A stretch of DNA of 64,000 nucleotides from an uncultured Candidatus Saccharibacteria bacterium (lineage in GTDB: Bacteria > Patescibacteriota > Minisyncoccia > Phycocordibacterales > UBA12088): NCBI GenBank assembly GCA_964567265.1, contig CAZMLK010000001.1, positions 331,723-395,722 of the forward strand, given 5' to 3'. Within the stretch, counting starts at the first letter, position 1. Each line of letters starts with the position of its first letter. A program made the translations under genes and the position numbers. The notes under the pieces were generated by a model. That model ran no database searches, was not told the origin of the DNA, and saw nothing but the letters and a program-made list of their open reading frames with translations. Positions 5,812 through 63,190 of the stretch are shown here, in pieces.

Positions 5812-5851
5812 GCCGAATCACGCATCCGCCTTTCATCTAAGCCAATATTCG

Positions 5852-5860
5852 TGTTACAAT
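5852..5860 (+). promoter_or_regulatory. atp operon promoter, extended -10 TGTTACAAT
   Basis: TGnTACAAT ending 10 nt before ATG 5871; implies very short or no leader. Confidence 0.45.
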
Positions 5861-5870
5861 GCGGGCGTTT

Positions 5871-6614: not shown

Positions 6615-6676
6615 GGGCGGGAAGAGTGGGCACATGGCGGATTTTGTGTTACAGTACAGCCATAACTTATAAATAA

Positions 6677-6925
<249 letters not shown>

Positions 6926-6938
6926 CCCGACCGGTGTC

Positions 6939-7388: not shown

Positions 7389-7391
7389 CAT

Positions 7392-7769
7392 ATGGCACTT
7401 GCTTCTGAATATGCCGCGCTCCTCGTAGAGCTTTCAAAGTCCGCTGAGACTGCGAAGGTTGAGGAGGAGTTTCTCGCGCTTCTCGAGAGGCGAGGTCATC
7501 TGAAGCTGCTTCCGAGCATCGTGACTGCCTACGAGCGCCTCATCGCAAAAGAGAAGAGCGTCTCTGAGCCTGTGCTTACGATCGCACGTGAGTCGGACCG
7601 CCAGGGAGCGCTCGCCGCGGCAAAAGTGGAAATGGGCGGAGCGGTGAGTCCGCGCGTCGAGATCGACGCGAAGCAAGTCGGCGGATGGAGGCTCCAGAAT
7701 GGAAGCACGCTCATCGATCGCACGGAGAAGCGCATGCTCCTCGATCTCTACCGGAAAATGACTGCCTAA
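7392..7769 (+). CDS. atpH: F0F1 ATP synthase subunit delta (short, 125 aa)
   Basis: Position in operon and C-terminal [22 protein letters not shown] resembling OSCP/delta C-terminal motif; N-terminal domain shortened. Confidence 0.8.
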
Positions 7770-7782
7770 TTATTTAAATACC

Positions 7783-9357: not shown

Positions 9358-9366
9358 TATCCAAAC

Positions 9367-10179
9367 ATGAGTATCACGCAGAAGAAATTGTTCATCACGA
9401 GCGGATGTCTCTTTGCACTCATAATTGTTGCGGGATGTTACTTGATCGTGAGCGAAGCACGAACACGCCTTCTTTCGCAAGCAGAACTTGCGCGGTTGTC
9501 TACTGCTGATGAATCGGATGCGACTGTTGACTCTAGGTATACAGAGGGCGGCGGCGTATCGCGAAATACGCCAATGATGGAAGAGTATCTCAAAAGCATA
9601 CACGCAGCATACCTAGCAGAACCGAACGGCGCCTCAAAGGTGTATGTACTCCGCGACGGAAAAATTTATTTTGTCGCAAATCAGAACGTCGCCAACGAAA
9701 GCGGATTGAAGCAAATCATAGATGCGGATGCGAAATCGTTTACTGTGCTGTATGAGGCGGGGGAACATGATGCGTATGCAAAGGATGTGCATCATGCATA
9801 TTTTTTTGACAGGACCTTGCAAGGTGTCGATGCGGCCTCGTTTGAGCCGATTGTGTATTTCGGAAAGGAAGGAAACTCAACTTTTTTCAAGGACAAGAAC
9901 TACTTGTACAAGTGGAATGACGGAAAAACTGAATTTGCGCAGGTACCGAATGCGGACCCCGCAACCTTCACTCTCATTCCAAGCACTCGCATGACAGGTA
10001 ACGGTGAAGCCAACTATGCAAAAGACAAGAATCAGTTCTATTGCCAGGGAAATGTCAGCGTAATAGATCCTGCAACTGCTGTGGTGCACCCCATTGAGGA
10101 TACGAATACGGGCGGAGTGAATGACGAATACATTACGGATAAAAACGGTCAGTACTCAGGTACCTGCGTGAAAAAATAA
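9367..10179 (+). CDS. DKNYY-like repeat protein, N-terminal membrane anchor; inserted in atp operon
   Basis: N-terminal hydrophobic helix; 4-5 repeats of (Y/F)aKDKNy.Y..g...adpATF.l (FKDKNYLYKW, AKDKNQFYCQ, ITDKNGQYSG); markedly AT-richer than flanking atp genes. Confidence 0.7.
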   Translation: MSITQKKLFITSGCLFALIIVAGCYLIVSEARTRLLSQAELARLSTADESDATVDSRYTEGGGVSRNTPMMEEYLKSIHAAYLAEPNGASKVYVLRDGKIYFVANQNVANESGLKQIIDADAKSFTVLYEAGEHDAYAKDVHHAYFFDRTLQGVDAASFEPIVYFGKEGNSTFFKDKNYLYKWNDGKTEFAQVPNADPATFTLIPSTRMTGNGEANYAKDKNQFYCQGNVSVIDPATAVVHPIEDTNTGGVNDEYITDKNGQYSGTCVKK

Positions 10180-10186
10180 ATCGTAT

Positions 10187-12524
<2,338 letters not shown>

Positions 12525-16700: not shown

Positions 16701-16832
16701 CGGAATGCGCACTTCAGGTGCGGATTCCTTCGGGATGACGATCAGCGAATACAGTCCGGCAACCGCAAGGGCGCCGAGCAGCAAGTACGTGAAATTCTGC
16801 TTTTGAATGAAGAAGCTCCAGAGTCGGTACAT
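13731..16832 (-). CDS. RND family efflux transporter permease (AcrB/HAE1-like)
   Basis: 1033 aa, 12-TM RND architecture, N-terminal ..LIVIPKESAPEVRIPIGVVSVFLPGASALDVE.. Confidence 0.9.
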   Translation of the reverse strand: MYRLWSFFIQKQNFTYLLLGALAVAGLYSLIVIPKESAPEVRIPIGVVSVFLPGASALDVETLITNKVEDQLSGSLENVKNVTSTSRESVSTVVVEFTASADLDKSIQDLKDEVDKVKTELPDEANDPIVSDVNFVNQPIYTFAIGSDAPPEELGTLAENLKDQLITVPGVSRVEIGGKRDRETQVVVRKEALASYGIRITDVIGALARGNANLPVGAIELDGVRYGIQFEGDINDPSEIRDLAITSINGRAVYVRDVADVYDGLAPETSISRISVGGQPSNSSLTLSVFKRSGGNITTITDAVDAKLVELQKPGESLDGITVISVFNSGEELKKSLSELTRTGFETVILVMLVLFLTVGWREALVASSSIPISFILAFIGLYKSGNTINFVSLFALILAVGILVDAGIVIVESMYTFITKGHSRAEAALLAVKTYHAPLTTGILTTVAVFVPLFFISGVTGQFIATIPFTIIFVLIASLVVALVFVPLIGASTLTGHSGENAKTWQDRYMDRFQAWYRKTMSDILYKPRLMRQIKWSLIGLFFVSLLFPIIGVVKVIFFPGEDVDYLITEVEMPQGTPVQVTDLELRRIEESLYDIPEISSFSITAGASSQFGNNPSSDSKLGNIFINLKKAKDRDRTSAELSALLRERFRTIHTSEVRISEPQNGPPVGRPILVKFLGEDLEAMERLADASAKILAGIDGTSNITTSTKDDGTEFILSIDKAKAAELGIDSASVASILRTAVQGTKATTIRTPNGDIEVIVSANLNPSYTDPHDAAKTGIESIEAIQVPTPQGAVLLGSLLSSRVAKASAAINHEEGDRVATVGSDLLEGANARDVTAEFKKRAGETLTIQSGVRMVIGGENEEVDQSFMEMFFALIAGIIFMLAVLMFDFNSWRHSLYVLSIVPLTLIGIMVGLALTRLPLSFPSLLGFIALAGIIVNHTILLIDVINKLRLEHPDMPIHDVVIEGAAIRLRPITLTNITTVIGMIPLSLAGGLWAPLAIAIMFGLAFAAVITLLLVPILYVQKPGKLHF

Positions 16833-16841
16833 AGGATTGTT

Positions 16842-18491
16842 TTAGTTGGCAGCAGCTCCGGCTTCGACAACGACATCACCCGGCTTGAATCCGCGTGCAT
16901 CGGTCACGATGACCATGTCCGGGGTCGCGCCGGTGAGGAGAAGGACTTTTCCTCCGACCACAGATCCGAGAGTGACGACATGCGGGACGAGGGCCATGTT
17001 CTCATCAACGGTAAAGATTGTGGTTTCCGTGGCGCCTATCTTGACTGCGGTAAGCGGAACGAAAAGTTCAGTTGAGGTTGCGTTGCCGTTCGTTGAAGCA
17101 ACTGGCGTGCCGCCTGTTCGTTCAATATCGATGCGAACCGTAGAGCCCTGCGTAAGAACTGCAGCCTTGTCGGTGACACCGACCTTGATCTCGACCTTCT
17201 TTGTCGCTGGATCAAGTCCGGGAGCGACTGAGGTGACGACGCCCGCATACTTTCCTTCGATCTGCGCCTTGGCGCCGACAACAATGGAATTCTTCTCGCG
17301 ATCGCTGACATACGCCACGATCTCGAGGCCGCCGTTCGACGAGGATACGGTCGCCGCGGGCTCGAACGAGCCGACGAATGACCCCTTCGAGAGCGTGAGC
17401 GTGTTCACTTTTCCGGAGATCGGAGTGCGGACGACGCTCTTCTCGTAGTTGGCGCGCGCGAGCGCGAGCGAGGCTTCTGCCTGCTTGAGACCGGCATCTG
17501 CGGCACGCACATCCTCGCTCTGTCCGCCCACCTGGCCCTGGGTCAGATTCTTTTCCGCGATCTCGAGAGCGCTGCGGCGATTGCTCAGATTTTCTTCCGC
17601 AGCAGTCACGGCCGAAAGATTGGCGAGGATGGTGGTGCGGCCGGTCGCGGCGCTCACTTTATATCCGGCGATGTCGCTGTCGGAAACGGTGCCGGTGGAG
17701 ATTGCACGGTTCAGCGCTGCCGCAAGGGTGTCGAAGAATGCTTTCACCGTCTGGAGCTCTGCTTCGGTCGTCTTCAGTTCCGAATCGACATTGGATGCAG
17801 ACAGCGTGCCGCGGGCTCCCGCCTCGCGCTTCATGATGCCTTCGATCTTGATGCGTGCGGCAACGAGGTTGGTCGCGAGCTGTGAATCGGAAGCGGTGAT
17901 ATTGAAACTCGGATTCGAGGAACGCGGGTTCGAGAACATCTCATCCGCCAGGCGGGTGACCGTGTCATCGATCGCGGCGTATGCCGACTGGACCGTGGTC
18001 TGCGCGCCTGTCTCAGCATTCCGAAGGGAAGACTCCGCGTTGTCGCGGCTTATCGTGAGGACCGAGAGCTGCTCGTTCCGGACGCCGCGCGTGAGCTTGT
18101 CGTACGAGGCCTGTGCCTGCGCGACGAATGCTGCAGCCTGCGCGACGCTTGCACGTTCAGACGCATTCTCGATTTCAGCGAGAACCGCTCCCGCGCCGAC
18201 CGTATCTCCGACGTGCGCATAGACGGCAGTCACTTCGCCCGACTTCTCGGTGCGGAGGATTGCCTCAGACTGCGAGTGGACCGTTCCGATGACCGGAAGG
18301 GTCGCCTTTGATGACGCAAGCGCTGCAATCGAGGAGAGAGTGACCTGACGGGTGTGCGTGTCCGCGACGGCTGCATCGTCACCATTACCTCCGAAAATGA
18401 AATACGCACCGGCTGCAAGGAGGACGATCAGCAAAAGGGCGCCGAGAACGATCCGGTTTTTCGAAGCGAAGGTCATGTTCTTGAAATTCAT
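16842..18491 (-). CDS. efflux RND periplasmic adaptor / membrane fusion protein
   Basis: N-terminal TM, biotin-lipoyl-like hairpin (AVYAHVGDTVGAGAVLAEI), long coiled coil, beta-barrel C-terminus; 9 nt upstream of RND permease. Confidence 0.85.
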   Translation of the reverse strand: MNFKNMTFASKNRIVLGALLLIVLLAAGAYFIFGGNGDDAAVADTHTRQVTLSSIAALASSKATLPVIGTVHSQSEAILRTEKSGEVTAVYAHVGDTVGAGAVLAEIENASERASVAQAAAFVAQAQASYDKLTRGVRNEQLSVLTISRDNAESSLRNAETGAQTTVQSAYAAIDDTVTRLADEMFSNPRSSNPSFNITASDSQLATNLVAARIKIEGIMKREAGARGTLSASNVDSELKTTEAELQTVKAFFDTLAAALNRAISTGTVSDSDIAGYKVSAATGRTTILANLSAVTAAEENLSNRRSALEIAEKNLTQGQVGGQSEDVRAADAGLKQAEASLALARANYEKSVVRTPISGKVNTLTLSKGSFVGSFEPAATVSSSNGGLEIVAYVSDREKNSIVVGAKAQIEGKYAGVVTSVAPGLDPATKKVEIKVGVTDKAAVLTQGSTVRIDIERTGGTPVASTNGNATSTELFVPLTAVKIGATETTIFTVDENMALVPHVVTLGSVVGGKVLLLTGATPDMVIVTDARGFKPGDVVVEAGAAAN

Positions 18492-34164: not shown

Positions 34165-36132
34165 ATGACCACGAAAAAACACACCATTCCGAGCCTCAAG
34201 GATGTCGACACGAGCGTCCGTCCACAGGATGATTTCTACGCCTACGCGGTCGGCAAGTGGCTCGCGAAGAACCCCATTCCGAAGACGGAGTCGCGCTGGG
34301 GAAGCTTCCATATTCTCCGCGAGAACAGCAAGGACCAGCTCCATGCGATCGCGCTCGAGGTCGCGAAGGACGCACGTGCCAAGAAGGGATCGCCCGAGCA
34401 GCTGGTTCGGGATTTTTGGATATCTGGGATGGACGAAGCTGCGCGTGAGAAGCTCGGGAGCGCACCGCTCATTCCGATCTTCAAGAAGATAGACGCGCTC
34501 AAGAGTGAAAAAGACATCGTGCCATTCATCGCCGAAGCCCACAAGATGGGCATTGATGCGCTCTGGGGCGCGTACGTGGGGCCTGATGACAAGCGGAGCG
34601 AGCGGAATATCTTCCACCTCTACCAGTCCGGCATCTCACTTCCGGACCGCGATTACTATATAAAGACCGATCCTGATTCGATCCGCATCCGCGAGGCCTA
34701 TCTGAAGCACGGCACCAAGATGTTCGAGTTGGTCGGGCTCTCCAGGAAGGAGGCCGCCATGGCGATGCGGATCGTCCTCCAGATCGAGACCTCGCTCGCG
34801 GAAGCGTCGATGACCGGCGTCGAGCGCCGGGATGTCGAGAAGCAGTACAACAAGCGGAGCGTGAAGAAGCTCGTCTCCGAAGCGCCGCTCGATTGGGCAA
34901 CCTATCTGAAGCGTCTCGGCGCCGGTTCGGTCAAGGAACTGATCGTCGCGCAGCCGTTGTTTATGAAGCGCGCAAGCGAGCTCCTCCAGACCATATCGCT
35001 TCCGGAGTGGAAGATATACTTGAAATGGCAGGCGATCGATGAGTTCGCACCCTTTCTCAGCACACCGTTCCTAACGGAGCACTTCAATTTCTACGGAAGG
35101 ACGCTTTCCGGCACCAAGGAGATACAGCCACTCTGGAAGCGAACCATCGCGGTCATCGACGCATCCGTCGGGGATGCGCTCGGGAAGCTCTACGTCGCGA
35201 AGCACTTCAACGCCGAAGCGGAGCGGAAAATCAACGCGCTCGTTGATAATCTCTTCGACACCTATGCCGCGCGCATCAAGACGCTCGACTGGATGAGCGC
35301 GCCCACCAAGAAGAAGGCGCTCGCGAAGCTCTGGCAGATCAACCGCAAGCTCGGGCACACGAAGAAATGGAAGACCTATGCGGGCCTCGACATCAAGCCG
35401 AATGATTTCATCGGCAATCTCTCACGTTCTCACACGCTCGCGCTCAAGCGGATGCTCAAGAAGATCGGAAAGGCACCTGATCGCACGGAATGGCACATGA
35501 CGCCGCCGACCGTGAATGCCTACTATTGGCCGAACATGAATGAGATCGCTTTTCCTGCGGGCATCATGCAGCCCCCGTTCTTCGATCCGGCTGCTCCCGA
35601 CGCCATCAATTACGGCGCGATCGGTTCCGTGATCGGGCACGAGCTCACACATGGATTCGACGACCAGGGCTGCCAATTCGACGGCAAGGGGAACTTCAAG
35701 AACTGGTGGACCGCGGATGATGCTGCGAAGTTCGCAAAGAAAACAAAGATGCTCGTGAAGCAGTACGATGATTTCGTTGCTGTCGGGGACATGCATGTCA
35801 ACGGGAAGCTGACGCTCGGCGAAAACATCGCAGACCTCGGGGGCGTCGTCATCGCATTCGAAGCCATGCAGCGCGCTCTCAAAGGCAAGAAGATTGAACT
35901 CGTGAACGGCTTCACGCCAGAACAACTGTTCTTCATAGGATACTCCTTCACTGAAGCCACGAACACGCGGCCGGAGGCCCTGAAGCGCCAGGTCATCACG
36001 GATCCGCACTCGCCGTCACCCTTCCGGGTAAATGGACCCTTGGCGCACGCTGAGGAGTTCTACAAGGCATTCGATGTGAAATCCGGAGACAAGCTTTTCC
36101 GCAAGCCAAGCGATCGCGTGAAGATCTGGTAA
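34165..36132 (+). CDS. M13 family zinc metallopeptidase (neprilysin/PepO-like)
   Basis: HELTHGFDDQG HExxH, GENIADLGG, 655 aa. Confidence 0.92.
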   Translation: MTTKKHTIPSLKDVDTSVRPQDDFYAYAVGKWLAKNPIPKTESRWGSFHILRENSKDQLHAIALEVAKDARAKKGSPEQLVRDFWISGMDEAAREKLGSAPLIPIFKKIDALKSEKDIVPFIAEAHKMGIDALWGAYVGPDDKRSERNIFHLYQSGISLPDRDYYIKTDPDSIRIREAYLKHGTKMFELVGLSRKEAAMAMRIVLQIETSLAEASMTGVERRDVEKQYNKRSVKKLVSEAPLDWATYLKRLGAGSVKELIVAQPLFMKRASELLQTISLPEWKIYLKWQAIDEFAPFLSTPFLTEHFNFYGRTLSGTKEIQPLWKRTIAVIDASVGDALGKLYVAKHFNAEAERKINALVDNLFDTYAARIKTLDWMSAPTKKKALAKLWQINRKLGHTKKWKTYAGLDIKPNDFIGNLSRSHTLALKRMLKKIGKAPDRTEWHMTPPTVNAYYWPNMNEIAFPAGIMQPPFFDPAAPDAINYGAIGSVIGHELTHGFDDQGCQFDGKGNFKNWWTADDAAKFAKKTKMLVKQYDDFVAVGDMHVNGKLTLGENIADLGGVVIAFEAMQRALKGKKIELVNGFTPEQLFFIGYSFTEATNTRPEALKRQVITDPHSPSPFRVNGPLAHAEEFYKAFDVKSGDKLFRKPSDRVKIW

Positions 36133-36192: not shown

Positions 36193-36549
36193 GTGCGTAT
36201 CGTGGAAAGACGCAGAGGCTACTGTGCACCGATGTCTGAATCAGACGGCGTCCCGAATCCGGGATCCGCGCGCTTCGTGCTCGATTTACGGGACGGCAGC
36301 TCCGTCGTGGCAAGCGAGCAACACGTAGGGTTGATCGAGTATTCGCTTGATGCCAACGGATGCGTGATCGATGCGAAGCCATGCACCGTCGATGACCTGA
36401 CCGCCGATGAGCGATATTTTTACGAGGAGATGATTACGGAGCCCATGACAACGGAGCAGCACACCATTTTTGACGCTATTTGGGGCGACGAAGTCGCTCC
36501 AGACTATGGCAGTGAACACGGTGGAGGATTACTCGGTCCAATAAAATAG
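36193..36549 (+). CDS. small hypothetical protein
   Basis: GTG start at 36193 or ATG at 36232; acidic C-terminus; no family motif. Confidence 0.45.
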   Translation: MRIVERRRGYCAPMSESDGVPNPGSARFVLDLRDGSSVVASEQHVGLIEYSLDANGCVIDAKPCTVDDLTADERYFYEEMITEPMTTEQHTIFDAIWGDEVAPDYGSEHGGGLLGPIK

Positions 36550-36557
36550 TGTCGCAT

Positions 36558-36596
36558 ATCGCCGAGGGCTCGTGCCCTCGGCGATCATCGTTTTTC
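36558..36596 (+). terminator. rho-independent terminator
   Basis: ATCGCCGAGGGC-TCGT-GCCCTCGGCGAT then CATCGTTTTTC. Confidence 0.8.
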
Positions 36597-36623
36597 AGAA
36601 AAAGATATGCTAGACTCGCGAGT

Positions 36624-38540
36624 ATGACAGTCGACGAGATACGTACGAAATATCTGGCTTTCTATAAGGCGCGCGGGCACGCAGTCCTCCCGTCTGCTTC
36701 GCTTGTGCCGGCAAATGACCCGACCACGCTGTTTACCGGAAGCGGCATGCAGCCGCTAGTCCCATATCTCCTCGGCAAGGATCATTCGGAGGGAACGCGG
36801 CTCGTGAACTCGCAGAAGGCATTCCGCTCCGGCGACATCGAGGAAGTCGGCGACAATCGCCATACGACTTTTTTCGAGATGCTTGGCAACTGGTCGCTCG
36901 GCGATTATTTCAAGCAGGAGCAGCTGCCATGGGTCTTCGAGTTCCTCACGAATGCGGATGAGGGAGTCGGACTTGACCCACGCAAGCTCTACGTCACCGT
37001 TTTCAGAGGAGATGAGAAGAACGAGGTGCCGCGCGACACTGAATCAGTGGACATCTGGAAAATGCTTTTTGCGGAGAAGGGGATCGAGGCGAACGTCGTC
37101 GAGATTGGCTCCGAGGAGCATGGCTACGAGGTCGGCATGCAGGGCGGCCGCATCTTCTATTACGATGCAAAGAAGAACTGGTGGAGCCGCGCAGGAGTCC
37201 CGGAAAAGATGCCGGCCGGCGAGCCCGGCGGCCCGGACTCCGAGATCTTCTATGATTTTGGAACGCCGCATGATCCGAAATGGGGCGCGGAATGCCATCC
37301 GAACTGCGATTGCGGGCGCTTTCTCGAGATCGGCAACTCGGTGTTCATGCAGTACATCAAGAAAGAAGACGGCTCCTTCGCGCTTCTTCCCAAGCAGAAT
37401 GTCGACTTTGGCGGCGGCTTGGAGCGTATCGCGGCGGCTTCGAACGGGAATCCTGATGTATTCCTCGCTGATATCTTTGAAAGCGTGATTGGGGATCTAG
37501 AGGCGAAGTCCGGAAAGAAATATGGGATATCAGATAAGGACACGAAAGCCTTCCGCGTCGTCGCGGATCATATCCGTGCCGCCGTATTCCTGATCGTTGA
37601 CGGCGTCCAGCCTTCAAACTCGGACCAGGGCTATTTCGTCCGCCGCCTGCTTCGGCGGGCGGTCCGGTTCGCGGATGCACTTGGAGTCCCGGAAAACCAG
37701 CTTTCAGAAATCGCTGGCATGGTCGTGCACGCCTATGGTCACGCCTATTTCATTTTGGATATTCATCTGCCGCTTGTCATCGGCACCGTAAGCGCTGAGG
37801 AAGAGCGCTTCCGCCAGACGCTCAAGCAGGGGATGCGTGAATTCGAAAAACTGTCGAAAGGAGACACGGTTTCGGGCCAGGATGCGTACGTGCTCTTCAC
37901 GACGCATGGCTTCCCGATCGAGCTCACGGAAGAAATCGCCCTCGAGCGCGGCGCGAAAGTAGATATGGATGCATTCAAGGCAGCGATGACGAAGCATCGC
38001 GACGATTCTCGTGCAGGCGCGGAGCAGAAGTTCAAGGGCGGACTCGCCGATACTTCCGAGGCCACCACACGCCTCCACACCGCGCATCATCTCCTCCTTA
38101 AGGCGCTTCAACAGGTCCTCGGAGATCACGTCCACCAGCGCGGCTCCAATATCACGGCTGAACGGCTTCGCATCGATTTCTCACACAGCGAGAAAATGAC
38201 TCCGGAACAGATCGCCGAGGTTGAAAAGATCGTAAATGAGAAAATCGAAGAGGGGATTCCGATGATCCGTTCGGTCTTGCCGAAGGAAGAAGCTGAAAAA
38301 TTGGGAGCTGAGCACGAATTCGGCGCTAAATATCCTGATACGGTATCAGTCTATTCCCTCGGTCCCATCGATGCGACTGAAACAAATCCTCGTTTTGAGC
38401 AGGCATTCTCTATTGAATTCTGCGGAGGCCCGCACGTTGCAAACACTTCTGAGCTCGCAGAATCAGGCCGCTTCAAGATCCAGAAGGAAGAAGCATCGTC
38501 GGCAGGCATTCGTCGCATCAAAGCCGTGTTGACAAAGTAG
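36624..38540 (+). CDS. alaS: alanine--tRNA ligase (short form, ~638 aa)
   Basis: MTVDEIRTKYLAFYKARGHAVLPSASLVPANDPTTLFTGSGM class II AlaRS N-terminus; editing-domain HxxxH (TAHHLLLKAL..GDHVHQRGS); listed ORF start 36549 spans the upstream terminator. Confidence 0.92.
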   Translation: MTVDEIRTKYLAFYKARGHAVLPSASLVPANDPTTLFTGSGMQPLVPYLLGKDHSEGTRLVNSQKAFRSGDIEEVGDNRHTTFFEMLGNWSLGDYFKQEQLPWVFEFLTNADEGVGLDPRKLYVTVFRGDEKNEVPRDTESVDIWKMLFAEKGIEANVVEIGSEEHGYEVGMQGGRIFYYDAKKNWWSRAGVPEKMPAGEPGGPDSEIFYDFGTPHDPKWGAECHPNCDCGRFLEIGNSVFMQYIKKEDGSFALLPKQNVDFGGGLERIAAASNGNPDVFLADIFESVIGDLEAKSGKKYGISDKDTKAFRVVADHIRAAVFLIVDGVQPSNSDQGYFVRRLLRRAVRFADALGVPENQLSEIAGMVVHAYGHAYFILDIHLPLVIGTVSAEEERFRQTLKQGMREFEKLSKGDTVSGQDAYVLFTTHGFPIELTEEIALERGAKVDMDAFKAAMTKHRDDSRAGAEQKFKGGLADTSEATTRLHTAHHLLLKALQQVLGDHVHQRGSNITAERLRIDFSHSEKMTPEQIAEVEKIVNEKIEEGIPMIRSVLPKEEAEKLGAEHEFGAKYPDTVSVYSLGPIDATETNPRFEQAFSIEFCGGPHVANTSELAESGRFKIQKEEASSAGIRRIKAVLTK

Positions 38541-38593
38541 CCGTTCACTATAGATTTGAGATAGAGATTCACAACCCTAGAGGGAGAATTCTG

Positions 38594-38959
38594 ATGGACG
38601 GAGCACTCGCTTCGGCCGATGCGAACGGGCGTGCTGGGGATATACCAGTACACGGACCACTGGCTGATACGCTGAGGCGGGAGCGTGTCAGACATGGAAC
38701 GCTCAAAAATATCCACCGTCTTGAAATGTACCTCGATCAACGGATCGGAGTACTTTTCCTCACAGCGGGAAATCTGACGGAAACCCAGCGCGAAGTGGTC
38801 CTTCGATATCGAGACCACTCCACCCTCGATCTCCTGTGCATTGCAATGCAAAGTACAGAATCAAGCCAAGTGTTCCTGGATTACAACGTGCTTGCCAGCA
38901 TCTATCTGGCTCCGTTCAATCCGCTCGATGCGCTCTGGGATGTGGCGGAAGAGAACTGA
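38594..38959 (+). CDS. hypothetical protein (121 aa)
   Basis: Strong AGAGGGAGAA ribosome-binding site 8 nt upstream of ATG; no family motif. Confidence 0.5.
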   Translation: MDGALASADANGRAGDIPVHGPLADTLRRERVRHGTLKNIHRLEMYLDQRIGVLFLTAGNLTETQREVVLRYRDHSTLDLLCIAMQSTESSQVFLDYNVLASIYLAPFNPLDALWDVAEEN

Positions 38960-39038
38960 CGCCGGTCGGATGCGGCGAGCCCCCAGGCTCGCCGCATTTC
39001 TTTTTCACAGCCTCGCCAAAAGTTTTGAAAACACTGCA

Positions 39039-39047
39039 TGCTATACT
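39039..39047 (+). promoter_or_regulatory. TGCTATACT extended -10, leaderless start at 39054
   Basis: -10 ends 6 nt before ATG 39054. Confidence 0.45.
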
Positions 39048-39053
39048 TTTTTC

Positions 39054-40256
39054 ATGATTTCTTCGTGGCTCTTTCCGAACAGCGCGCCGCGTGCAGTGGC
39101 AGTTTTTGATATTGGAAGCAGCAGCATCGGCACCGCGCTGGTGCTTGTCGGGAAAGGCTTGCCCGAAATTCTTTATGGCAACCGGACACCGATCCCGTTC
39201 CAGAAGGACCTTGAGATTGAGAAGTTCACCAAAGCGACGCTGACCGCCCTCATGGATGCTGCGCTCGATCTCCAGAGCGTCGGGCTCCTCCGTATGCAGG
39301 GTAGGGGAGTGAGGCACGTAAGCGATACCTGTGTCATTTTTGCATCACCCTGGTCGGAGTCCCGGAGTACCAATATTGAGCTCCAGAAGGACAAGGCATT
39401 TGCGATAACCCGGGAGCTCGTTGATGAGACCGTCCAAACAGAAGCAGACAAGCTGAACGATGCTGATACGGGCGATGCGGAGAAGCCAGTCTTGATTGAA
39501 AGGCATGCGGTCGGAATCACGCTGAATGGCTACCGTTTTGATAATCCCTATGGCAAGAAGACGAAGTCGGTATCTATCCGTTCCTTTTTCAGCTTCATTC
39601 CGAGTGATTTGGAGGCGAAGGCACGGGAAATCATCACGGGCGCGATCCCGGGAGCGCGTATCGTCGCGCATTCCTTCGGCATGGTGCTTTTCTCCGGAAC
39701 ACGAGATATCCACCAGGATATCGATGCCGCACTCCTCATCGATATACGCGGAGAAATGACGGACATCTCCCTCATGCGGAACGGTATCCTCGAGACGACC
39801 GTTTCCTTCCCGATTGGAGAACGGACACTCATGCGCATGCTTTTTGAACGCGGAAGCAATCGCCTTCCAGAAGAGGAACATTCGCGGCTCCGGATGTATC
39901 TCGAAGGACGGGCTGGTGAGGAACTGACCGGATCCTTGGCTGCCGAGCTTGCCGCAGCGAGCGGCGTCTTCGAGATGTCACTCAAGAAAACGCTTGAACC
40001 CCTCGTCGCATCCGGCATGCTCCCGAGCCAGGCTGTTATTGTGACGGAAGGAGATGTCGGTCCTTGGTTCCAAGAGCTCATCGGCAAACTCGACATGAGC
40101 GCCCTCATCCTTGGGGGAGGATCACTCCAAGTCTATCCGCTCACGAGCGACTCACTCAAGAACACGACGATAGCCGGCGGCAATGTCAAGCCGGATCCTT
40201 TCCTTATGCTCGATGCCATATTCGTGGACAAGATCCTGAAGATATCCACCGCATGA
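39054..40256 (+). CDS. actin-like ATPase (ASKHA fold), FtsA/PilM-like
   Basis: AVFDIGSSSIGTALV phosphate-1, ALLIDIRGEMTDISLMRNG phosphate-2, C-terminal ALILGGGSLQ adenosine motif; listed ORF from 38841 overlaps upstream gene. Confidence 0.75.
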   Translation: MISSWLFPNSAPRAVAVFDIGSSSIGTALVLVGKGLPEILYGNRTPIPFQKDLEIEKFTKATLTALMDAALDLQSVGLLRMQGRGVRHVSDTCVIFASPWSESRSTNIELQKDKAFAITRELVDETVQTEADKLNDADTGDAEKPVLIERHAVGITLNGYRFDNPYGKKTKSVSIRSFFSFIPSDLEAKAREIITGAIPGARIVAHSFGMVLFSGTRDIHQDIDAALLIDIRGEMTDISLMRNGILETTVSFPIGERTLMRMLFERGSNRLPEEEHSRLRMYLEGRAGEELTGSLAAELAAASGVFEMSLKKTLEPLVASGMLPSQAVIVTEGDVGPWFQELIGKLDMSALILGGGSLQVYPLTSDSLKNTTIAGGNVKPDPFLMLDAIFVDKILKISTA

Positions 40257-40312
40257 CAGCCGCCTTTGTGGTATAAATAAGGCATTAACGAAGCCCGCTA
40301 TCAGCGACAACT

Positions 40313-41623
40313 ATGAAAAAAATGCCTCTCCAAGATGTTGTTTCCCGGCCGCCTGTGCCGCCAAGGATGTCCCGCCAGACCGTACCAATGACTCCGCAGA
40401 ACCCGCCTGAAGATGAACCACCACGACGTATGAACCCCGAACCAATGCGAACACACGAAGGACGGAAACGAGGCCATGGGCTCCGCACCATCGGCATCAT
40501 CTTGGCGCTCATAATATTGGCAGTCGGCATCGGCTCGGTCTTCTTCTTCGCAGGAGCTGACGTCAATGTGACCCCCAAGCAGGCGACCACCCCGGTCGAT
40601 GCCACATTTACTGGCCACATCTCCGGTGGTCCAGCGGTAGCGGGCGTTCTTCCTTATGATATCCTCACGCTTGAGGAATCACGTTCAAAGACCCTTCCAT
40701 CAACTGGCTCTGAGCAGGTCTCGGAACCAGCATCCGGAACAATCGTCGTATACAACAACTATAGCGACAAGAGCCAAGAGCTCGTGAAGAACACGCGTTT
40801 CCAGACGCCGGAAGGGCAGATCTTCCGAATACGTAATTCAATCTCCGTTCCTGGCCAAAAGACTGACGGCGGCAAAAAGGTTCCGGGAAGCGTAGAGGTC
40901 ATGGTGTACGCGGAGGAAGCGGGTGATAAGTACAATATCGGACTCACCGACTTTACCATCCCTGGATTCAAGGGTGGGCCTCGTTTCGAGGCATTCTACG
41001 CACGCTCGAAGACCCCAATGACGGGCGGATTTGTAGGAGTACGGAAGGTTGTCTCGAAGGCGGATGAGGAAAAGGCACGCCAGGAACTCCAGACGGAGCT
41101 CCGAAGCGTCCTTGCCGAATCTGCGGTGACGAAGACCCCCGAGGGCTTCCTCTTGCCACTGAAGGGCGTATTCCTTTCATTCGAATCACCTGCAAGCGCT
41201 CCAGACGGAGACCAGGTAACCATCACCGAAAAGGGTATTCTCCATGGAATCATCTTGAATCAAGGTGACGTAGCGAAGGCCATCGCGGAAAAGAATATCC
41301 CTAGTTACGATGAATCGCCGGTCATGCTGAAGGACCCTAAGGCCGTGACCATCGAACCCCTCATCACAGCAACCTCAAGCTCGCCTTGGATCGAAGAAAC
41401 TCTCGAGTTCTCAATAAAGGGCAGTGCAACCATTAATTGGGTCGTTGATACAGGCAAATTGGCCGCAGACCTCGCTGGAAAGCCCGAGGAGGCGCTGAAT
41501 ACGGTGCTTGGCGGGTATCCCGGCGTAGAGCGTGCAAAAGCCGTCCTCCGGCCGATCTGGAGGAAAACCTTCCCCTCAAAAGCGGAGGATATCAAGGTTA
41601 TCCTAGAGGAACCGGCCAGCTAG
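40313..41623 (+). CDS. bitopic membrane protein with Pro-rich cytoplasmic N-terminus and large external domain
   Basis: ~65-aa Pro-rich N-terminus, single TM (IGIILALIILAVGIGSVFFFAG), ~350-aa C-terminal domain; directly downstream of actin-like ATPase. Confidence 0.65.
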   Translation: MKKMPLQDVVSRPPVPPRMSRQTVPMTPQNPPEDEPPRRMNPEPMRTHEGRKRGHGLRTIGIILALIILAVGIGSVFFFAGADVNVTPKQATTPVDATFTGHISGGPAVAGVLPYDILTLEESRSKTLPSTGSEQVSEPASGTIVVYNNYSDKSQELVKNTRFQTPEGQIFRIRNSISVPGQKTDGGKKVPGSVEVMVYAEEAGDKYNIGLTDFTIPGFKGGPRFEAFYARSKTPMTGGFVGVRKVVSKADEEKARQELQTELRSVLAESAVTKTPEGFLLPLKGVFLSFESPASAPDGDQVTITEKGILHGIILNQGDVAKAIAEKNIPSYDESPVMLKDPKAVTIEPLITATSSSPWIEETLEFSIKGSATINWVVDTGKLAADLAGKPEEALNTVLGGYPGVERAKAVLRPIWRKTFPSKAEDIKVILEEPAS

Positions 41624-58274: not shown

Positions 58275-58826
58275 ATGAATCTTGAACAGCACATTGAAGC
58301 GCTCCTTTTTTATCGCGGCGAGCCCGTCAGCATTGCAGCGCTCCAAAAGACGTTCGAAGTAGATGAGGCAACGATCATGACTGCGTTGAACGCGCTCGGC
58401 CTGTCGCTCGCAAGCCGCGGCATCCGCCTCATGGAACTGAACGGCGATGTCGAACTCCGGACCGCGCCCGAAAGCGCCGAGATCATACGGAACATCCGGA
58501 AAGAGGAGCTTTCGAAGGATCTGGGCAAGGCAGGCATGGAAACACTCTCCATCATCCTCTACCAGGGGCCTCTTTCACGTGCAGACATCGACTACATCCG
58601 CGGGGTCAATTCCTCATTCATCCTTCGAAATCTCTTGATCCGGAACCTCATCGATCGCGTCCCGAATCCCAAGGACGAGCGGAGCTTCCTCTATCGTGGT
58701 ACGGTAGACCTTCTTGCATTCATGGGCGTATCCCGGATCGAGGAGCTGCCAGACTATGAAAAGGTCAGGGCGGAACTCCGGGCAATTTCAGAAAAACAAG
58801 CTGGTGAACATGACGGAATCGTATAA
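58275..58826 (+). CDS. scpB: segregation and condensation protein B
   Basis: IEALLFYRGEPVSIAALQK, winged-helix tandem. Confidence 0.9.
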   Translation: MNLEQHIEALLFYRGEPVSIAALQKTFEVDEATIMTALNALGLSLASRGIRLMELNGDVELRTAPESAEIIRNIRKEELSKDLGKAGMETLSIILYQGPLSRADIDYIRGVNSSFILRNLLIRNLIDRVPNPKDERSFLYRGTVDLLAFMGVSRIEELPDYEKVRAELRAISEKQAGEHDGIV

Positions 58827-59811
58827 CAACCCTCAAGAAGAAAAAATCTCACTGATACAGACGAAATCCCTTCGTCCGTGGATTGTTTTTTTCGTATTCA
58901 TCGGAGCCATCATGGCGCTCGCGCTTGTCGCGATCTGGTACTTGAAGGAAGAGCCCGCGGCTCCGATCGAGACGCCTCCTATGGTAACGCCGCCGGTCGC
59001 GACCGTGACCCTGAAGACGCCGATCCAGGGCAGGGCAGCGTATGTGTATGACGCCGTGACCGGCCAGATGCTCTATGAGAAGAATCCGGAGCTCCAACTG
59101 CCACTGGCATCACTTACGAAAGTGATGACCGCGCTGGTAGCATCCGACAGCCTTGAGGATGATGATACCGTTACCATAACGGACGAGTCCCTCCACGAAG
59201 ATGGTTCGAGCGGACTCGGTGCAGGCGAAACATGGCTGTTCCGCAACCTTCTCAATCTCACGCTCATCTCTTCATCTAATGATGCCGCACATGCCATCGC
59301 GGGTGCAGCAGGGGCGATCGAGCGCATGAGCCCGCCAGGCGAGAGCGATGACCATGCGAATGTGACCACCTTTGTTGCCTCGATGAACGAAAAAGCTGCC
59401 GAGCTCGGGCTCGCGAAGACGTATTTCCTGAATCCGACAGGACTCGATGAGACGACTGAAAAAAGCGGTGCCTATGGCTCCGCAAAAGATGTAGCGAAAC
59501 TGCTTGCGTACATCATCGCGACGAAACCGGAACTTCTTGAGGAGACACGACTTACCGATCTCAAGGTCACCGACATGGCGGGCCATGAGAAGACTGCGAA
59601 GAATACAAACAAGAACATCAGCAATCTGCCCGGCCTGATGGCTTCGAAGACCGGACTTACCGATCTCGCCGGCGGGAATCTCGCCATCGCATTCGATGCC
59701 GGCCTCGGCCACCCAATAGTCGTTGTCGTCCTTGGCTCCACTGAGGACGGCCGCCTTACCGATGTCGAGAATCTCGTTGACGCGACCTTGGCCAGCTTCA
59801 CCCACGAATAG
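58810..59811 (+). CDS. D-alanyl-D-alanine carboxypeptidase (peptidase S11, low-molecular-weight penicillin-binding protein)
   Basis: N-terminal TM; SLTK (SxxK), SSSND (SxN), KTGLT (KTG) motifs; overlaps scpB by 17 nt. Confidence 0.85.
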   Translation: MTESYNNPQEEKISLIQTKSLRPWIVFFVFIGAIMALALVAIWYLKEEPAAPIETPPMVTPPVATVTLKTPIQGRAAYVYDAVTGQMLYEKNPELQLPLASLTKVMTALVASDSLEDDDTVTITDESLHEDGSSGLGAGETWLFRNLLNLTLISSSNDAAHAIAGAAGAIERMSPPGESDDHANVTTFVASMNEKAAELGLAKTYFLNPTGLDETTEKSGAYGSAKDVAKLLAYIIATKPELLEETRLTDLKVTDMAGHEKTAKNTNKNISNLPGLMASKTGLTDLAGGNLAIAFDAGLGHPIVVVVLGSTEDGRLTDVENLVDATLASFTHE

Positions 59812-59865
59812 GGGATAGCCGGCCGACGTTCTCTTGCTCTGAACGCGGTATACTAGCCACAATCC

Positions 59866-60927
59866 ATGTCCCCAGATATCGTTAAAGTTATCGTTCCCTT
59901 GGCTGCGGCCTTTTTTGTCGGCATCAGCATCACGCCAATCGTCACGCACTATCTTTTCAAATACAAAGTCTGGAAGAAGAAGGGCGGCAAGGAGGCCCTC
60001 GACGGAAACGTTGCCACCGAATTCAACAAGCTCCACGGGGCAGGGGAGCTCCACACCCCACGGATGGGCGGCATCGTCGTCTGGGCGAGCGCGCTCCTCA
60101 CCACCTTCGGCCTGTCCGCGCTCGCCCATTTCTTTCCATCATCAACAACGCTGAAGCTTGATTTCCTCAGCCGTGACCAGACCTGGATCCCGCTCTTCGC
60201 GCTCATAACGGGTGCTCTGGTCGGCTTCCTCAATGACGTCTTCGACATTCATGAGGACGGCCCACGCGGGATACCGCTCCGCATACGCCTTCTCATAATC
60301 GGCGGACTCTCCCTATTCATCGGCTGGTGGTTCTATACCAAACTCGCGGTCACGACCATCGGCATCCCGTTCGGCATGCCGCTTGAGATCGGCTGGCTCA
60401 TCATCCCGTTCTTCATGCTCGTATCCTTGGGGCTCTACGCGAGCGGTGTCATCGATGGCATCGACGGGCTTTCCGGCGGAGTCTTCGCGTCCATATTCAC
60501 GGCATATGCAATCATCGCGTTCCACCAGAGCCAGATCAACATCGCCGCATTTTGCGCGATGATGGTCGGCGCGCTCCTCGCATTCCTCTGGTTCAACATA
60601 CCGCCCGCGCGCTTCTGGATGACCGAGACCGGAACCATGGGCATCACGCTCGCGATCGCTGTCATTGCCTTCATGACGGACACCCCCGGGGAAGGGATCG
60701 GTGTCGCGGTGCTTCCGATCGTCGCAGCACTCCTTGTAGCGACCGTGTTTTCAAACATCCTGCAGGTCCTCTCGAAGAAGCTCCGCGGCAAGAAGCTTTT
60801 TCGCATCGCGCCCCTGCATCACCACTTCGAGGCGCTCGGCTGGCCTGGATACAAGGTCACGATGCGCTACTGGGTACTCTCAATCATCTTCGCCTTTGTC
60901 GGGATCATAATCGCCTTAATCGGATAG
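59866..60927 (+). CDS. mraY: phospho-N-acetylmuramoyl-pentapeptide transferase
   Basis: 10-TM MraY family, GIDGLSGG motif region. Confidence 0.95.
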   Translation: MSPDIVKVIVPLAAAFFVGISITPIVTHYLFKYKVWKKKGGKEALDGNVATEFNKLHGAGELHTPRMGGIVVWASALLTTFGLSALAHFFPSSTTLKLDFLSRDQTWIPLFALITGALVGFLNDVFDIHEDGPRGIPLRIRLLIIGGLSLFIGWWFYTKLAVTTIGIPFGMPLEIGWLIIPFFMLVSLGLYASGVIDGIDGLSGGVFASIFTAYAIIAFHQSQINIAAFCAMMVGALLAFLWFNIPPARFWMTETGTMGITLAIAVIAFMTDTPGEGIGVAVLPIVAALLVATVFSNILQVLSKKLRGKKLFRIAPLHHHFEALGWPGYKVTMRYWVLSIIFAFVGIIIALIG

Positions 60928-60931
60928 CGGT

Positions 60932-62029
60932 ATGCGGAAGGGAATCGATCGCACGTTCTTTTTCACCGTCCTGGTCCTCGTGTCCTGCGGTTTTTTCATA
61001 TTCCTCTCGGCATCGCTCGGTCTCCTCGCCCGTGAAGGCGCCGCGTTCACGAGCGTAGCGTTCAATCAGATCATCCTCGGCCTTTTTGGAGGCAGCATCG
61101 CACTCTTCACGCTATCCCGGTTCTCATACAAGCTTTACCGGCCGTATGTACTCCATTTTCTGGTTGGATCAGTGTTCGCAACGCTTCTGGTATTCGTTCC
61201 GGGCATCGGTTTCGGGCACAACGGCGCCCATCGCTGGCTCGACCTCCGGGTAACATCCTTCCAGCCCTCCGAGCTCCTGAAGATCGCCGTGATCCTCTAT
61301 TTCGCCGCCTACCTCTCGTCTCACCGGGATAAGCTCAAATATCTCAAATTCGGCTTCCTGCCGCTTCTCGGGGTCCTTGGCCTTGTAGCGGGCGTACTTC
61401 TTCTCCAGCCTGATACCGGGACCTTCCTAGTCCTGGCATCGGCCGTTGTTGCCATGTATTTGGCCGCAGGAGCCCCCTGGAGGGACATTCTGCTCCTGGT
61501 GCTCATGGCCTTCATGGGAATCGCCGTTTTGGCCTTTTTCAGGCCGTATGTCATGGACCGCTTCACCACCTTCCTCGACCCCGCAAGCGATCCTCTCGGT
61601 TCCGGCTATCAGATCCAGCAATCCCTGATTGCTATCGGATCCGGCAAGATCACTGGTCGCGGATTCGGCCAGAGCATCCAGAAATTCGACTTTCTGCCGG
61701 AGCCGATCGGCGATTCGGTCTTTTCGGTGTATGCCGAGGAATTCGGTTTCGTCGGTGCTGCCGCGCTCATCGTACTCTATCTCTTTGTAGCGCTTCGAGG
61801 CCTCCGAATCGCAAGCAGATCGCCAGATTTGTTCGGTGGACTCATCGCGGTCGGGATTGTTATACTGATAATGTCTCAATCGTTCATTAATATTGGATCG
61901 ATGCTCGGAGTATTGCCGCTGACCGGCGTCCCGCTCGTGTTCGTGAGTCACGGCGGTACCGCCCTCTTCTTCTCGCTCGCGGAAATAGGCATCCTCCTTA
62001 ACATCTCTTCCTACATCAAGCGCGTATAG
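60932..62029 (+). CDS. ftsW: SEDS family peptidoglycan glycosyltransferase FtsW/RodA
   Basis: 10-TM SEDS protein between mraY and murG. Confidence 0.9.
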   Translation: MRKGIDRTFFFTVLVLVSCGFFIFLSASLGLLAREGAAFTSVAFNQIILGLFGGSIALFTLSRFSYKLYRPYVLHFLVGSVFATLLVFVPGIGFGHNGAHRWLDLRVTSFQPSELLKIAVILYFAAYLSSHRDKLKYLKFGFLPLLGVLGLVAGVLLLQPDTGTFLVLASAVVAMYLAAGAPWRDILLLVLMAFMGIAVLAFFRPYVMDRFTTFLDPASDPLGSGYQIQQSLIAIGSGKITGRGFGQSIQKFDFLPEPIGDSVFSVYAEEFGFVGAAALIVLYLFVALRGLRIASRSPDLFGGLIAVGIVILIMSQSFINIGSMLGVLPLTGVPLVFVSHGGTALFFSLAEIGILLNISSYIKRV

Positions 62030-62044
62030 CGCTATCCCGAACAC

Positions 62045-63190
62045 ATGAAAATCGTATTTGCAGGCGGCGGGAGCGGTGGACATTTTTATCCTATCGTTGC
62101 AGTCGCCGAAGAGCTTGAACGCATCATAGACAATGAAGGACTCCTGAAAGCGAAGCTGTTTTACATAGCGCCGCATCCTTTTGATAAGCGCCTCCTTTTC
62201 GAGAATGATATCGAATTCATCCCGGCACCCTCGGGCAAGATGCGTGTCGGATACGGCTCATTCCTTAATTTTCTCGATTCTTTCAAGATTGCTGCCGGTA
62301 TTGTGAAGTCGGTCTTCGTGCTGTTTCGCATCTACCCTGATGTGATTTTCAGCAAGGGCGGGTACGCGAGCGTTCCGATCCTCGTCGCGGCGCGCATCCT
62401 CCGCATCCCCGTATTCATCCATGATTCCGACGCGGTCCCGGGACGTACTACGCTGTGGGCGGCCAAGTTCGCGGCGCGCATCGCGATCTCATACCCTGAA
62501 GCAGCTGATAAGTTCACAGAAAAGCAGCGTGAAAAGATTGCATTCACCGGCAACCCGGTCCGACGCGGCGTCGCGACGCCTGCCACTGAAGGGGTGTTCG
62601 AGTATCTCGAGCTCGCGCGCGACGTGCCCACCATCTTCGTGATCGGCGGATCACAGGGAGCGCTCCACATCAATGATGTGATCCTCGAGGCGCTTCCCAT
62701 TCTGCTTGAGAAGTACCAGGTCATCCATCAGACAGGCGAGCACAACTTCGCTGAGGCAAGCGGAGCCGCATCAATCGCCCTCGAGAATAATCCGTATCGC
62801 AATCGGTACAAGCCATTTCCATACCTGAGCGATCTCGCGCTCCGCATGGCCGCAGGCGCCGCGACCCTGATCGTCTCACGTGCAGGTTCGGGCTCCATTT
62901 TCGAGATCGCTGCCTGGGGCAAGCCATCTATCATGATCCCGATTCCAGAGGAAATCTCGAGGGATCAGCGTGAGAATGCCTTCGCGTTCGCGCGCGCAGG
63001 CGCTGCCGTCGTGATCGAGGAAGTGAACCTGAGTCCGCACGTGCTCGCGGCCGAAATAGACCGCCTGGTAGACAATCCGACCGCATGCGCGCAGATGGCC
63101 GCGGCTGCGGTCGCCTTCCGAAAGCCAGACGCTGCTGAAGTGATCGCGCGGGAAATCATGCGCATTGCGCTCAAACATGAGGTAGAGTAA
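62045..63190 (+). CDS. murG: undecaprenyldiphospho-muramoylpentapeptide beta-N-acetylglucosaminyltransferase
   Basis: MKIVFAGGGSGGHFYPIVAVAEEL G-loop, GT28 two-domain. Confidence 0.93.
   Translation: MKIVFAGGGSGGHFYPIVAVAEELERIIDNEGLLKAKLFYIAPHPFDKRLLFENDIEFIPAPSGKMRVGYGSFLNFLDSFKIAAGIVKSVFVLFRIYPDVIFSKGGYASVPILVAARILRIPVFIHDSDAVPGRTTLWAAKFAARIAISYPEAADKFTEKQREKIAFTGNPVRRGVATPATEGVFEYLELARDVPTIFVIGGSQGALHINDVILEALPILLEKYQVIHQTGEHNFAEASGAASIALENNPYRNRYKPFPYLSDLALRMAAGAATLIVSRAGSGSIFEIAAWGKPSIMIPIPEEISRDQRENAFAFARAGAAVVIEEVNLSPHVLAAEIDRLVDNPTACAQMAAAAVAFRKPDAAEVIAREIMRIALKHEVE

Follow-up and report, generated by a model that had tools for sequence, protein, structure and literature searches.

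A predicted actin-like protein of the FtsA/PilM class and its bitopic partner: a candidate two-gene envelope module of Parcubacteria

Bacterial actin-like proteins of the FtsA/PilM class are known to work together with bitopic membrane proteins that carry a docking peptide at their N-terminus. The N-terminal peptide of PilN is clamped by PilM, and the cytoplasmic N-terminal tail of FtsN is bound by FtsA. Here we describe a gene pair of similar design from a 64,000-nucleotide stretch (contig CAZMLK010000001.1; the whole stretch is referred to as the window) of the genome of a member of the Patescibacteria, also known as the candidate phyla radiation (CPR). The first gene (39054-40256, + strand) encodes an actin-like protein of 400 amino acids (aa). 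The second (40313-41623, + strand) encodes a bitopic protein of 436 aa, here named the partner. The window is a housekeeping region with a G+C content of ~55%. Among uncultured ultrasmall bacteria, the Parcubacteria/Paceibacteria rank with the most abundant, and to our knowledge their envelope assembly, cell division and contact with hosts are almost unexplored.

On balance, and with some reserve, we favour the interpretation that both genes form a trans-membrane envelope module spread across the Parcubacteria/Paceibacteria, in which the actin-like protein docks on a cytoplasmic peptide of the partner. A design of this kind, in which an actin-like protein of the FtsA/PilM class is combined with a bitopic partner bearing a docking peptide at its N-terminus, has precedents. 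New are the actin family, the ectodomain of the baseplate-J/GlxA type and the genomic setting, and no description of the pair was found in the literature searched. The folds and domain architecture of the two proteins, the conservation of the peptide, the leaderless promoter and the tight, asymmetric linkage of the genes were established here; from these we infer the docking, oligomerisation and cellular role of the pair. The three open reading frames (ORFs; 121, 400 and 436 aa) were confirmed at the coordinates of the original prediction, which was made from the DNA letters, and lie on the + strand.

Fold and family of the actin-like protein

The start codon of the actin-like gene at 39054 is supported by the N-termini of homologues (MISSWLF...). 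An AlphaFold2 model of the protein, built from 19 homologues, was confident, with a predicted local distance difference test score (pLDDT) of 89 and a predicted template modelling score (pTM) of 0.88. When the model was compared with the PDB using Foldseek, the top 29 matches were FtsA and PilM structures, with E-values from 7.6e-19 to 1.5e-13 and target-normalised TM-scores (TMt) of up to 0.70. FtsA structures led the ranking (7.6e-19 for 1e4g to 1e-15; TM-score 0.66-0.69 over ~415 columns). PilM structures of P. aeruginosa, T. thermophilus and M. xanthus, including the PilM:PilN complexes 5eou and 2ych, were matched at 1.5e-17 to 1.5e-13, and the FtsN-related FtsA structure 7Q6I was present among the matches as well. 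After a clear gap, BT_3980, EutJ, Ppx/GppA, MreB and ParM followed at 1e-9 or worse (query-normalised TM-score, TMq, at most 0.45).

Since the other ASKHA classes scored about ten orders of magnitude worse, the modelled 400-aa protein is assigned to the FtsA/PilM class. This is in agreement with the original prediction, which had proposed such a fold; the alternative that it had named, placement in an unrelated ASKHA family such as Ppx/GppA, was not supported by the Foldseek ranking. The assignment is further supported by a 1C-like insertion (residues ~97-197; 39342-39644, + strand), which forms a beta-alpha-beta-beta-alpha element in the model at the position of the FtsA/PilM 1C domain. The insertion carries the family-specific motifs S-P-W (98-100), E149, L-N-G-Y (157-160) and P165, and the invariant motif PYGK lies in this domain as well. 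SPW, LNGY and PYGK are thereby placed where PilM and FtsA bind the peptides of their partners.

Both phosphate motifs were recognized. The phosphate-1 motif FDIGSSSIG (39108-39134, + strand), with nearly invariant D19, G21 and S24, aligns with LEIGTAKVA of E. coli FtsA. A modified phosphate-2 motif, D230-I-R-G-E234-M-T236-D237 (39741-39764, + strand), aligns with VDIGGGTMD of the same protein, and here D230, E234 and T236 are nearly invariant. Aligned with E. coli FtsA by hhalign (E 1.4e-4), residues 9-284 keep a collinear order; the alignment extends over FtsA residues 3-257 and takes in the 1C region as well as both phosphate motifs.

Profile searches were less specific. The protein of the window had no significant match in Pfam or NCBIfam, and no ftsA or pilM model was found at E ≤ 1. 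PilM_2 (PF11104) matched none of 113 family members at E ≤ 0.01. The FtsA model PF14450 weakly matched 52 of the 113 (best 4.3e-8); these matches do not discriminate, because the same model matches MreB at 1e-12. Among PDB sequences, the profile of the actin-like family detected PilM of M. xanthus (6.4e-4) and FtsA of T. maritima (0.098). No meaningful match came from searching the same sequences directly with either protein or with a profile of the partner. Judged by the sequence models, the protein belongs to neither the FtsA nor the PilM family. A model of the Mycoplasma MPN316 family in NCBIfam gave a non-significant match to residues 221-266 (E 0.13).

The family is large: clustering at 50% identity leaves 3,877 representatives, of which 1,986 reach E ≤ 1e-30. 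With it, the membrane-associated bacterial actins of the FtsA/PilM class gain a third branch. The relatives listed are mostly 374-418 aa long and are matched by the profile nearly end to end. In the model the last core helix (382-399) runs almost to the C-terminus, with only residue 400 following it. Since the relatives likewise end within a few residues of this helix, a C-terminal linker and amphipathic helix of the FtsA type are absent, and the protein has no membrane anchor of its own.

These data bear on the main functional rival of the module proposed here, according to which the protein is the divergent FtsA of this lineage and tethers FtsZ, with the partner as the anchor that replaces the C-terminal amphipathic helix. 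We regard this as possible, though rather unlikely. FtsA structures top the fold ranking, the collinear alignment with E. coli FtsA has the E-value given above, and 52 of the 113 family members are weakly matched by PF14450. The housekeeping context of the two genes would fit a division protein. Furthermore, mraY, ftsW and murG of the window are followed by gltX and an M23 peptidase gene and not by ftsQ, ftsA and ftsZ, and a query with E. coli FtsA detected no canonical FtsA in ~1 Mb of orthologous loci, which cover this neighbourhood only.

However, linkage to ftsZ was seen in no locus, and phmmer with E. coli FtsZ found nothing in the same ~1 Mb. As originally predicted, the actin-like gene of the window is not followed by ftsZ but by the partner gene and then by infA, rpsM, rpsK, rpsD and rpoA; ftsQ is not adjacent either, and alaS is the neighbour on the other side. 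The weak PF14450 matches are shared with MreB, the window protein matched no NCBIfam ftsA model, and PilM fits the fold almost as well and is the better match when the family profile is run against PDB sequences. As a further difference from the FtsA system, the ectodomain of the partner is unrelated to the SPOR domain of FtsN.

The bitopic partner and its ectodomain

The partner consists of four parts, the first of which is a conserved N-terminal peptide described below. The disordered cytoplasmic tail rich in Pro, Arg and Lys (residues 1-55; 40313-40477, + strand; pLDDT 42-58; 13 Pro) is followed in the model by a single transmembrane (TM) helix (residues 56-79; 40478-40549, + strand), and since basic residues flank this helix on its N-side, the N-terminus would lie inside the cell. 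The remaining 357 aa (residues 80-436; 40550-41620, + strand) constitute the extracytoplasmic domain, of which residues 82-436 are folded with a pLDDT of ~95. A single-pass protein with a Pro-rich tail and a large external domain had been proposed initially and was confirmed, with the tail measuring ~55 aa instead of ~65.

The ectodomain appears to have an architecture like that of the baseplate J/gp47/gp6 proteins of phages. Foldseek matches in the PDB were the wedge proteins of cyanophage A-1(L), Pa193, XM1, Mu and phi812 (8kea_b, 1.2e-6; 9b45_j, 7.7e-6; 7kh1, 1.2e-5; Mu 9ki1_H, 2.3e-5; phi812 9euf_C, 1.5e-4). The alignments with these solved wedge proteins had 345-390 columns (E 1e-6 to 1e-4) and took in the 357-aa domain over nearly its full length; the family to which they point is that of baseplate J, with P2 gpJ, Mu gp47 and the T4 gp6 core (PF04865, PHROG_6). 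The Foldseek probability was 0.99-1.0, with E-values of 1e-7 to 1e-4 overall and a TM-score of ~0.2. Many predicted phage proteins named 'Baseplate J-like' were matched as well: among the top 30 BFVD entries, all that carry a name are of the baseplate J, wedge or assembly type or otherwise virion-structural, and many are unnamed. By profile, the baseplate wedge subunit PHROG_6 matched the partner at E 1.7e-4, and PF04865 (baseplate J) matched one of 40 partner family members (E 0.0025). The models support a shared domain set and barrel in the ectodomain and the wedge proteins, rather than a rigid-body superposition.

The best Foldseek match of the ectodomain was the barrel of GlxA, the radical copper oxidase of Streptomyces (PDB 4UNM, 6.9e-7). 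This barrel domain, PF21110, was also the only Pfam match of the partner above the curated cutoff (residues 140-222; E 1.6e-6; score 29.2 bits, cutoff 27), and 38 of 40 family members matched it. Only the barrel is common to both proteins, and the partner has neither a Kelch propeller nor a copper site; the GlxA equivalog model of NCBIfam gave 19.6 bits against a cutoff of 800. GlxA is itself N-terminally anchored and extracytoplasmic. The beta-barrel core (residues 140-222; 40730-40978, + strand) is strongly conserved. It holds 17 of the 24 invariant residues, e.g. N160-T-R-F163, P180-G181, E195, D213-F214 and P217-G218, and the invariant S232 and G239/G242 lie just C-terminal to it. Judged from this pattern, conservation of the barrel core and the surrounding loops goes far beyond what a purely structural role would demand.

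A PilN- or PilO-like ectodomain was ruled out, as the fold matches are of the baseplate J and GlxA type only.

The partner differs from phage baseplate proteins in being membrane-anchored and extracytoplasmic, and its gene is chromosomal and located among housekeeping genes, with no tail genes in the loci examined. It is tempting to regard it as a domesticated phage baseplate-wedge protein that serves as a membrane-anchored extracellular scaffold and is driven or organised by a docking actin of the FtsA/PilM class; this idea is speculative and we consider it doubtful. On this view the pair would form a trans-envelope machine not described before, either the divisome membrane anchor of the lineage in place of the FtsA amphipathic helix or an apparatus for surface or host contact, and it would be essential across a major branch of the CPR. 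Outside this family, such an ectodomain has been seen in phage baseplates and in a single morphogenesis enzyme of Streptomyces, and if the docking were true, the module would show a structural fold of phages at work in the cell envelope.

Scarcely credible, in our view, is the notion that the pair is a remnant of a prophage or contractile injection system, or that the actin-fold protein acts in metabolism, as a phosphatase of the Ppx/GppA type or as some other ASKHA enzyme. The baseplate J-like fold and the PHROG_6 match would speak for the former, and weak Ppx-GppA matches of the window protein (E 0.014) and of 17 of the 113 family members for the latter. However, no other phage, tail or sheath genes were present in any locus, the pair lies among housekeeping genes and keeps one chromosomal position across at least 454 species, and PADLOC gave no hits, which rules out a defence system as well. 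The Ppx-GppA score of 15.3 bits stays below the cutoff of 27 (PF02541), and Ppx structures were matched only at ~1e-8 with a TMq of 0.31-0.38, compared with 0.66 for FtsA. Context and fold ranking thus effectively refute this reading, and the metabolic enzymes are ruled out by the ranking together with the sub-threshold profile score.

Near its N-terminus, the cytoplasmic tail of the partner carries a conserved peptide, LQDVVSRPP in the window (40328-40354, + strand), which is a putative docking site for the actin-like protein. Among 146 non-identical partners the first ~20 residues follow the consensus [LFI]-Q-D-[IVM]-[VIT]-P-P-x-[KR]-R-[ST]-I-R-[DN]-I, and the Asp is present in ~99% of the aligned sequences. 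Some gene callers chose a shorter partner form of 392 aa. The long form starting at 40313 is the correct one, since the N-terminal peptide that it gains is conserved throughout the family. Between peptide and membrane lies a low-complexity linker of variable sequence and of 36 to 220 residues among orthologues. Its length appears to be essentially unconstrained, because the tail of one orthologue (locus L047, 4365-6233) reaches 220 aa, with His/Ala/Pro repeats between the peptide and the TM helix.

The pair resembles PilM and PilN (2YCH, 5EOU) in several respects. In both systems the gene for an anchorless cytoplasmic actin-fold protein with a 1C domain directly precedes that for a bitopic protein, whose N-terminus bears a short conserved peptide, I-N-L-L-P in PilN and Q-D-[IV]-[IV]-P here; we assume that the PilN peptide (PDB 2YCH) corresponds to that of the partner in position and pattern. 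The linker, in contrast, is disordered and 30-200 aa long in the partner and only ~10 aa in PilN, the ectodomain is baseplate-J-like, and the gene after the partner is infA and not pilO, with no pilO, pilB, pilC or pilin genes nearby. GspL of the type II secretion system, a fusion of a PilM-like and a PilN-like part, also couples an actin-like domain via one TM helix to an ectodomain. It differs from the pair described here, which consists of two polypeptides with another ectodomain and without secretion-system genes (judged by Pfam and Foldseek rankings only).

The original prediction had interpreted this organisation as a PilM-PilN/O-type inner-membrane platform of a type IV pilus or a related filament machine. 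Its layout of peptide, linker and one TM helix was borne out and is like that of PilN and FtsN, PilM structures including the PilM:PilN complexes 5eou and 2ych are among the best fold matches, and M. xanthus PilM is the best profile match among PDB sequences (6.4e-4). Nevertheless, a pilus platform is highly improbable and largely refuted. The ectodomain is baseplate-J/GlxA-like and lacks the ferredoxin-like fold of PilN and PilO, an outcome that the prediction itself had named as speaking against it, and none of the 113 actin-like family members matched PilM_2. Neither a PilB/PilT-type Walker A motif (GxTGSGK[ST]T) nor a prepilin motif was found in the window and 88 related loci (~1 Mb), and the gene tables of five annotated loci contained no pilus families. 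The pilin-like protein reported elsewhere in the window was not recovered either, as no class-III prepilin motif occurs there in any frame. Furthermore, CPR bacteria possess recognisable, separate and co-localised PilM, PilN, PilO, PilB, PilC and PilT genes (PMC6744442), and these are situated elsewhere in their genomes.

Linkage, expression and proposed role of the pair

Both proteins were found only in records labelled Patescibacteria or Parcubacteria (Kaiser-, Campbell-, Wolfe-, Taylor- and Zambryskibacteria, Paceibacterota), where they are named 'hypothetical protein' throughout. The partner gene occurs in at least 454 species genomes. The module is thus present in hundreds of species and fixed in a core housekeeping array, and is annotated only as hypothetical. 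In the window infA, rpsM, rpsK, rpsD, rpoA and rplQ follow the partner gene in this order on the + strand, and the order alaS, actin-like gene, partner gene, infA, rpsM, rpsK, rpsD, rpoA was held even where the actin-like proteins share only 25-27% identity.

Linkage of the two genes was assessed from both sides. Of 80 genome loci found via the partner, 66 show the actin-like gene next to it, upstream and in the same orientation; the gap between the two genes has a median of 48 nt. Conversely, 80 metagenome loci were found via the actin-like protein, and after 11 with less than 400 bp of downstream sequence had been left out as uninformative, the partner was immediately downstream in 68 of 69; the remaining locus has only 486 bp of downstream sequence. 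The linkage is asymmetric: the partner can stand alone, and the actin-like gene was never clearly seen without it in the metagenome loci.

The actin-like gene is preceded by an extended -10 element, TGCTATACT (TG-n-TATACT; 39039-39047, + strand), which ends 6 nt before the ATG, and a Shine-Dalgarno (SD) sequence is missing. Leaderless expression had been part of the original prediction and recurs in orthologues. A hexamer TA[TC]A[AC]T ends 5-9 nt before the start in 45 of 69 actin-like orthologues, compared with 1.2% of all ATGs in the same loci, and an SD-like sequence was found in only one of the 69. Based on these frequencies, the predicted leaderless arrangement is a conserved trait of the gene. 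No terminator was predicted between the actin-like and partner genes. A possible internal extended -10 element, TGGTATAAA (40269-40277, + strand), lies 13 nt past the actin-like stop and 35 nt before the partner ATG, which suggests that the partner may also be transcribed alone; a -10 hexamer 5-9 nt before the start was found in 13 of 84 partner genes.

It might be argued that the two genes have independent functions and are adjacent only because the housekeeping array around them is exceptionally stable. alaS and infA are conserved alongside to an equal degree, one clade retains the partner with no actin-like gene next to it, no covariation signal was obtained and the internal element TGGTATAAA may serve the partner gene alone. 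We consider this improbable, since the partner follows the actin-like gene in 68 of the 69 informative loci, on one strand, with the short median gap given above and no terminator predicted in between. Moreover, the architectures are complementary: an anchorless, soluble protein of the FtsA/PilM class stands beside a bitopic protein with a conserved cytoplasmic peptide.

In the favoured module, a leaderless mRNA would give rise to the soluble actin-fold protein of the FtsA/PilM class, with its 1C-like domain and without a membrane-targeting tail. The N-in bitopic partner would present its baseplate-wedge-like ectodomain outside and the conserved peptide in the cytoplasm, and by analogy with PilM on PilN, or FtsA on the FtsN tail, the actin-like protein would be recruited to the membrane via this peptide. 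A nucleotide- or polymer-dependent state in the cytoplasm might in this way be coupled to an extracytoplasmic scaffold. The location of the pair between alaS and the infA-rps-rpoA genes, in a housekeeping array, suggests that it acts constitutively, in division or in the assembly of envelope and surface, rather than in type IV pili. Docking of the actin-like protein on the peptide, if true, would offer a concrete handle on CPR cell biology through the interaction itself, its nucleotide dependence, polymerisation and localisation.

Several observations weigh against this proposal. The global TM-score of ~0.2 between ectodomain and wedge proteins is low, and the relationship is supported by local 3Di and sequence similarity together with the barrel domain. 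In the actin-like protein T-[AV]-[DE]-x-D, an acidic-x-acidic pattern unlike FtsA, appears to take the place of the Gly-Gly adenosine motif, as judged from position and not from an alignment, and because of this apparent replacement nucleotide binding and ATPase activity are uncertain. Mutual information with average product correction, calculated between peptide and actin-like protein for 119 non-redundant pairs, placed its top signals in a gap-rich loop column, and covariation of the two was no higher than in the ectodomain control. The equal conservation of alaS and infA as neighbours, which implies no functional link, is a further caution. Finally, in 11-12 loci, essentially of one clade, alaS abuts the partner gene and a local actin-like gene is absent, and this clade keeps the N-terminal peptide as the variant LQDVTPPKRSIQDIPIP. 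Because the peptide is retained there, it may have another ligand, or the actin-like gene may have moved in that clade.

The same clade carries a bona fide mreB (PF06723, E 1e-127) 1.6-3.7 kb upstream of alaS (L037, 168-1244; L046, 212-1249; L070, 3-1070). An analogy to MreB and MreC was ruled out, as this mreB is followed by holB-like and UDG genes and not by mreCD. No mreB was found among the ~43 ORFs of the window that were scanned, a subset of all its ORFs.

ORF121 and other features of the window

Upstream of the pair, the + strand of the window carries genes for an M13 peptidase (34165-36132) and alaS (36549-38540), followed by a 121-aa ORF (38594-38959), here named ORF121. The ribosome-binding site proposed for ORF121 was confirmed: an SD-like GAGGGAG (38580-38586, + strand) lies 7 nt before its ATG and is conserved in a relative with 93% identity (L003). 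A promoter-like site of its own is present at 38529-38556. Downstream, an intrinsic terminator with a 14-bp stem, nine G-C pairs and a T-tract (38968-39009, + strand) closes the alaS/ORF121 transcript ahead of the actin-like gene, and in L003 the stem is maintained via compensatory changes.

A counterpart of ORF121, 120 aa in length, was found only in the 93%-identical relatives L003 and L004. ORF121 is probably a real gene, because in L003 it is kept with an in-frame indel and with 39, 30 and 62 substitutions at the three codon positions. A search of 5.8 billion clusters matched it with nothing except itself, and no Pfam, NCBIfam, PHROG or PADLOC match was obtained. It is absent from the next relative (L001, 51% identity), where the gap between alaS and the actin-like gene is 54 bp. 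The original prediction had listed ORF121 as preceding the pair; as an orphan with its own terminator that is missing in relatives at 51% identity, it is ruled out as a member of the module and is a separate, lineage-specific transcription unit in a variable spacer.

This spacer (38541-39053) is a variable insertion site, holding ORF121 here and comprising just the 54 bp in L001. In L007 the spacer (5813-7955) contains four small unannotated genes of 134, 127, 73 and 294 aa. A structured RNA between alaS and the actin-like gene was ruled out, as the only Rfam matches in the 64 kb are four tRNA genes, which form a tight cluster at the window start (537-1034).

Some observations from other parts of the window may be added. 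A fragmented cell-wall cluster with genes for a D-Ala-D-Ala carboxypeptidase, mraY, ftsW and murG is located at 58714-63190 and has a counterpart in locus L088 (11154-13838). Here murG is directly followed by gltX and the M23 peptidase gene, with no murC, ftsQ, ftsA or ftsZ next to it. ATP synthase genes lie at 7783-12524, with an alpha-type gene at 7783-9357 and a beta-type gene at 10983-12524. The 270-aa ORF between them matches the DKNYY family (E 2.6e-14) rather than a gamma subunit, the ~800 bp upstream of the beta-type gene contain no long + strand ORF, and the beta-type protein has an N-terminal extension of ~60 aa. On the - strand (13731-18491), a full-length RND transporter of the AcrB type (1033 aa, E 8e-179) adjoins a HlyD-like membrane-fusion protein of 549 aa, which is unexpected in an organism thought to be without an outer membrane.

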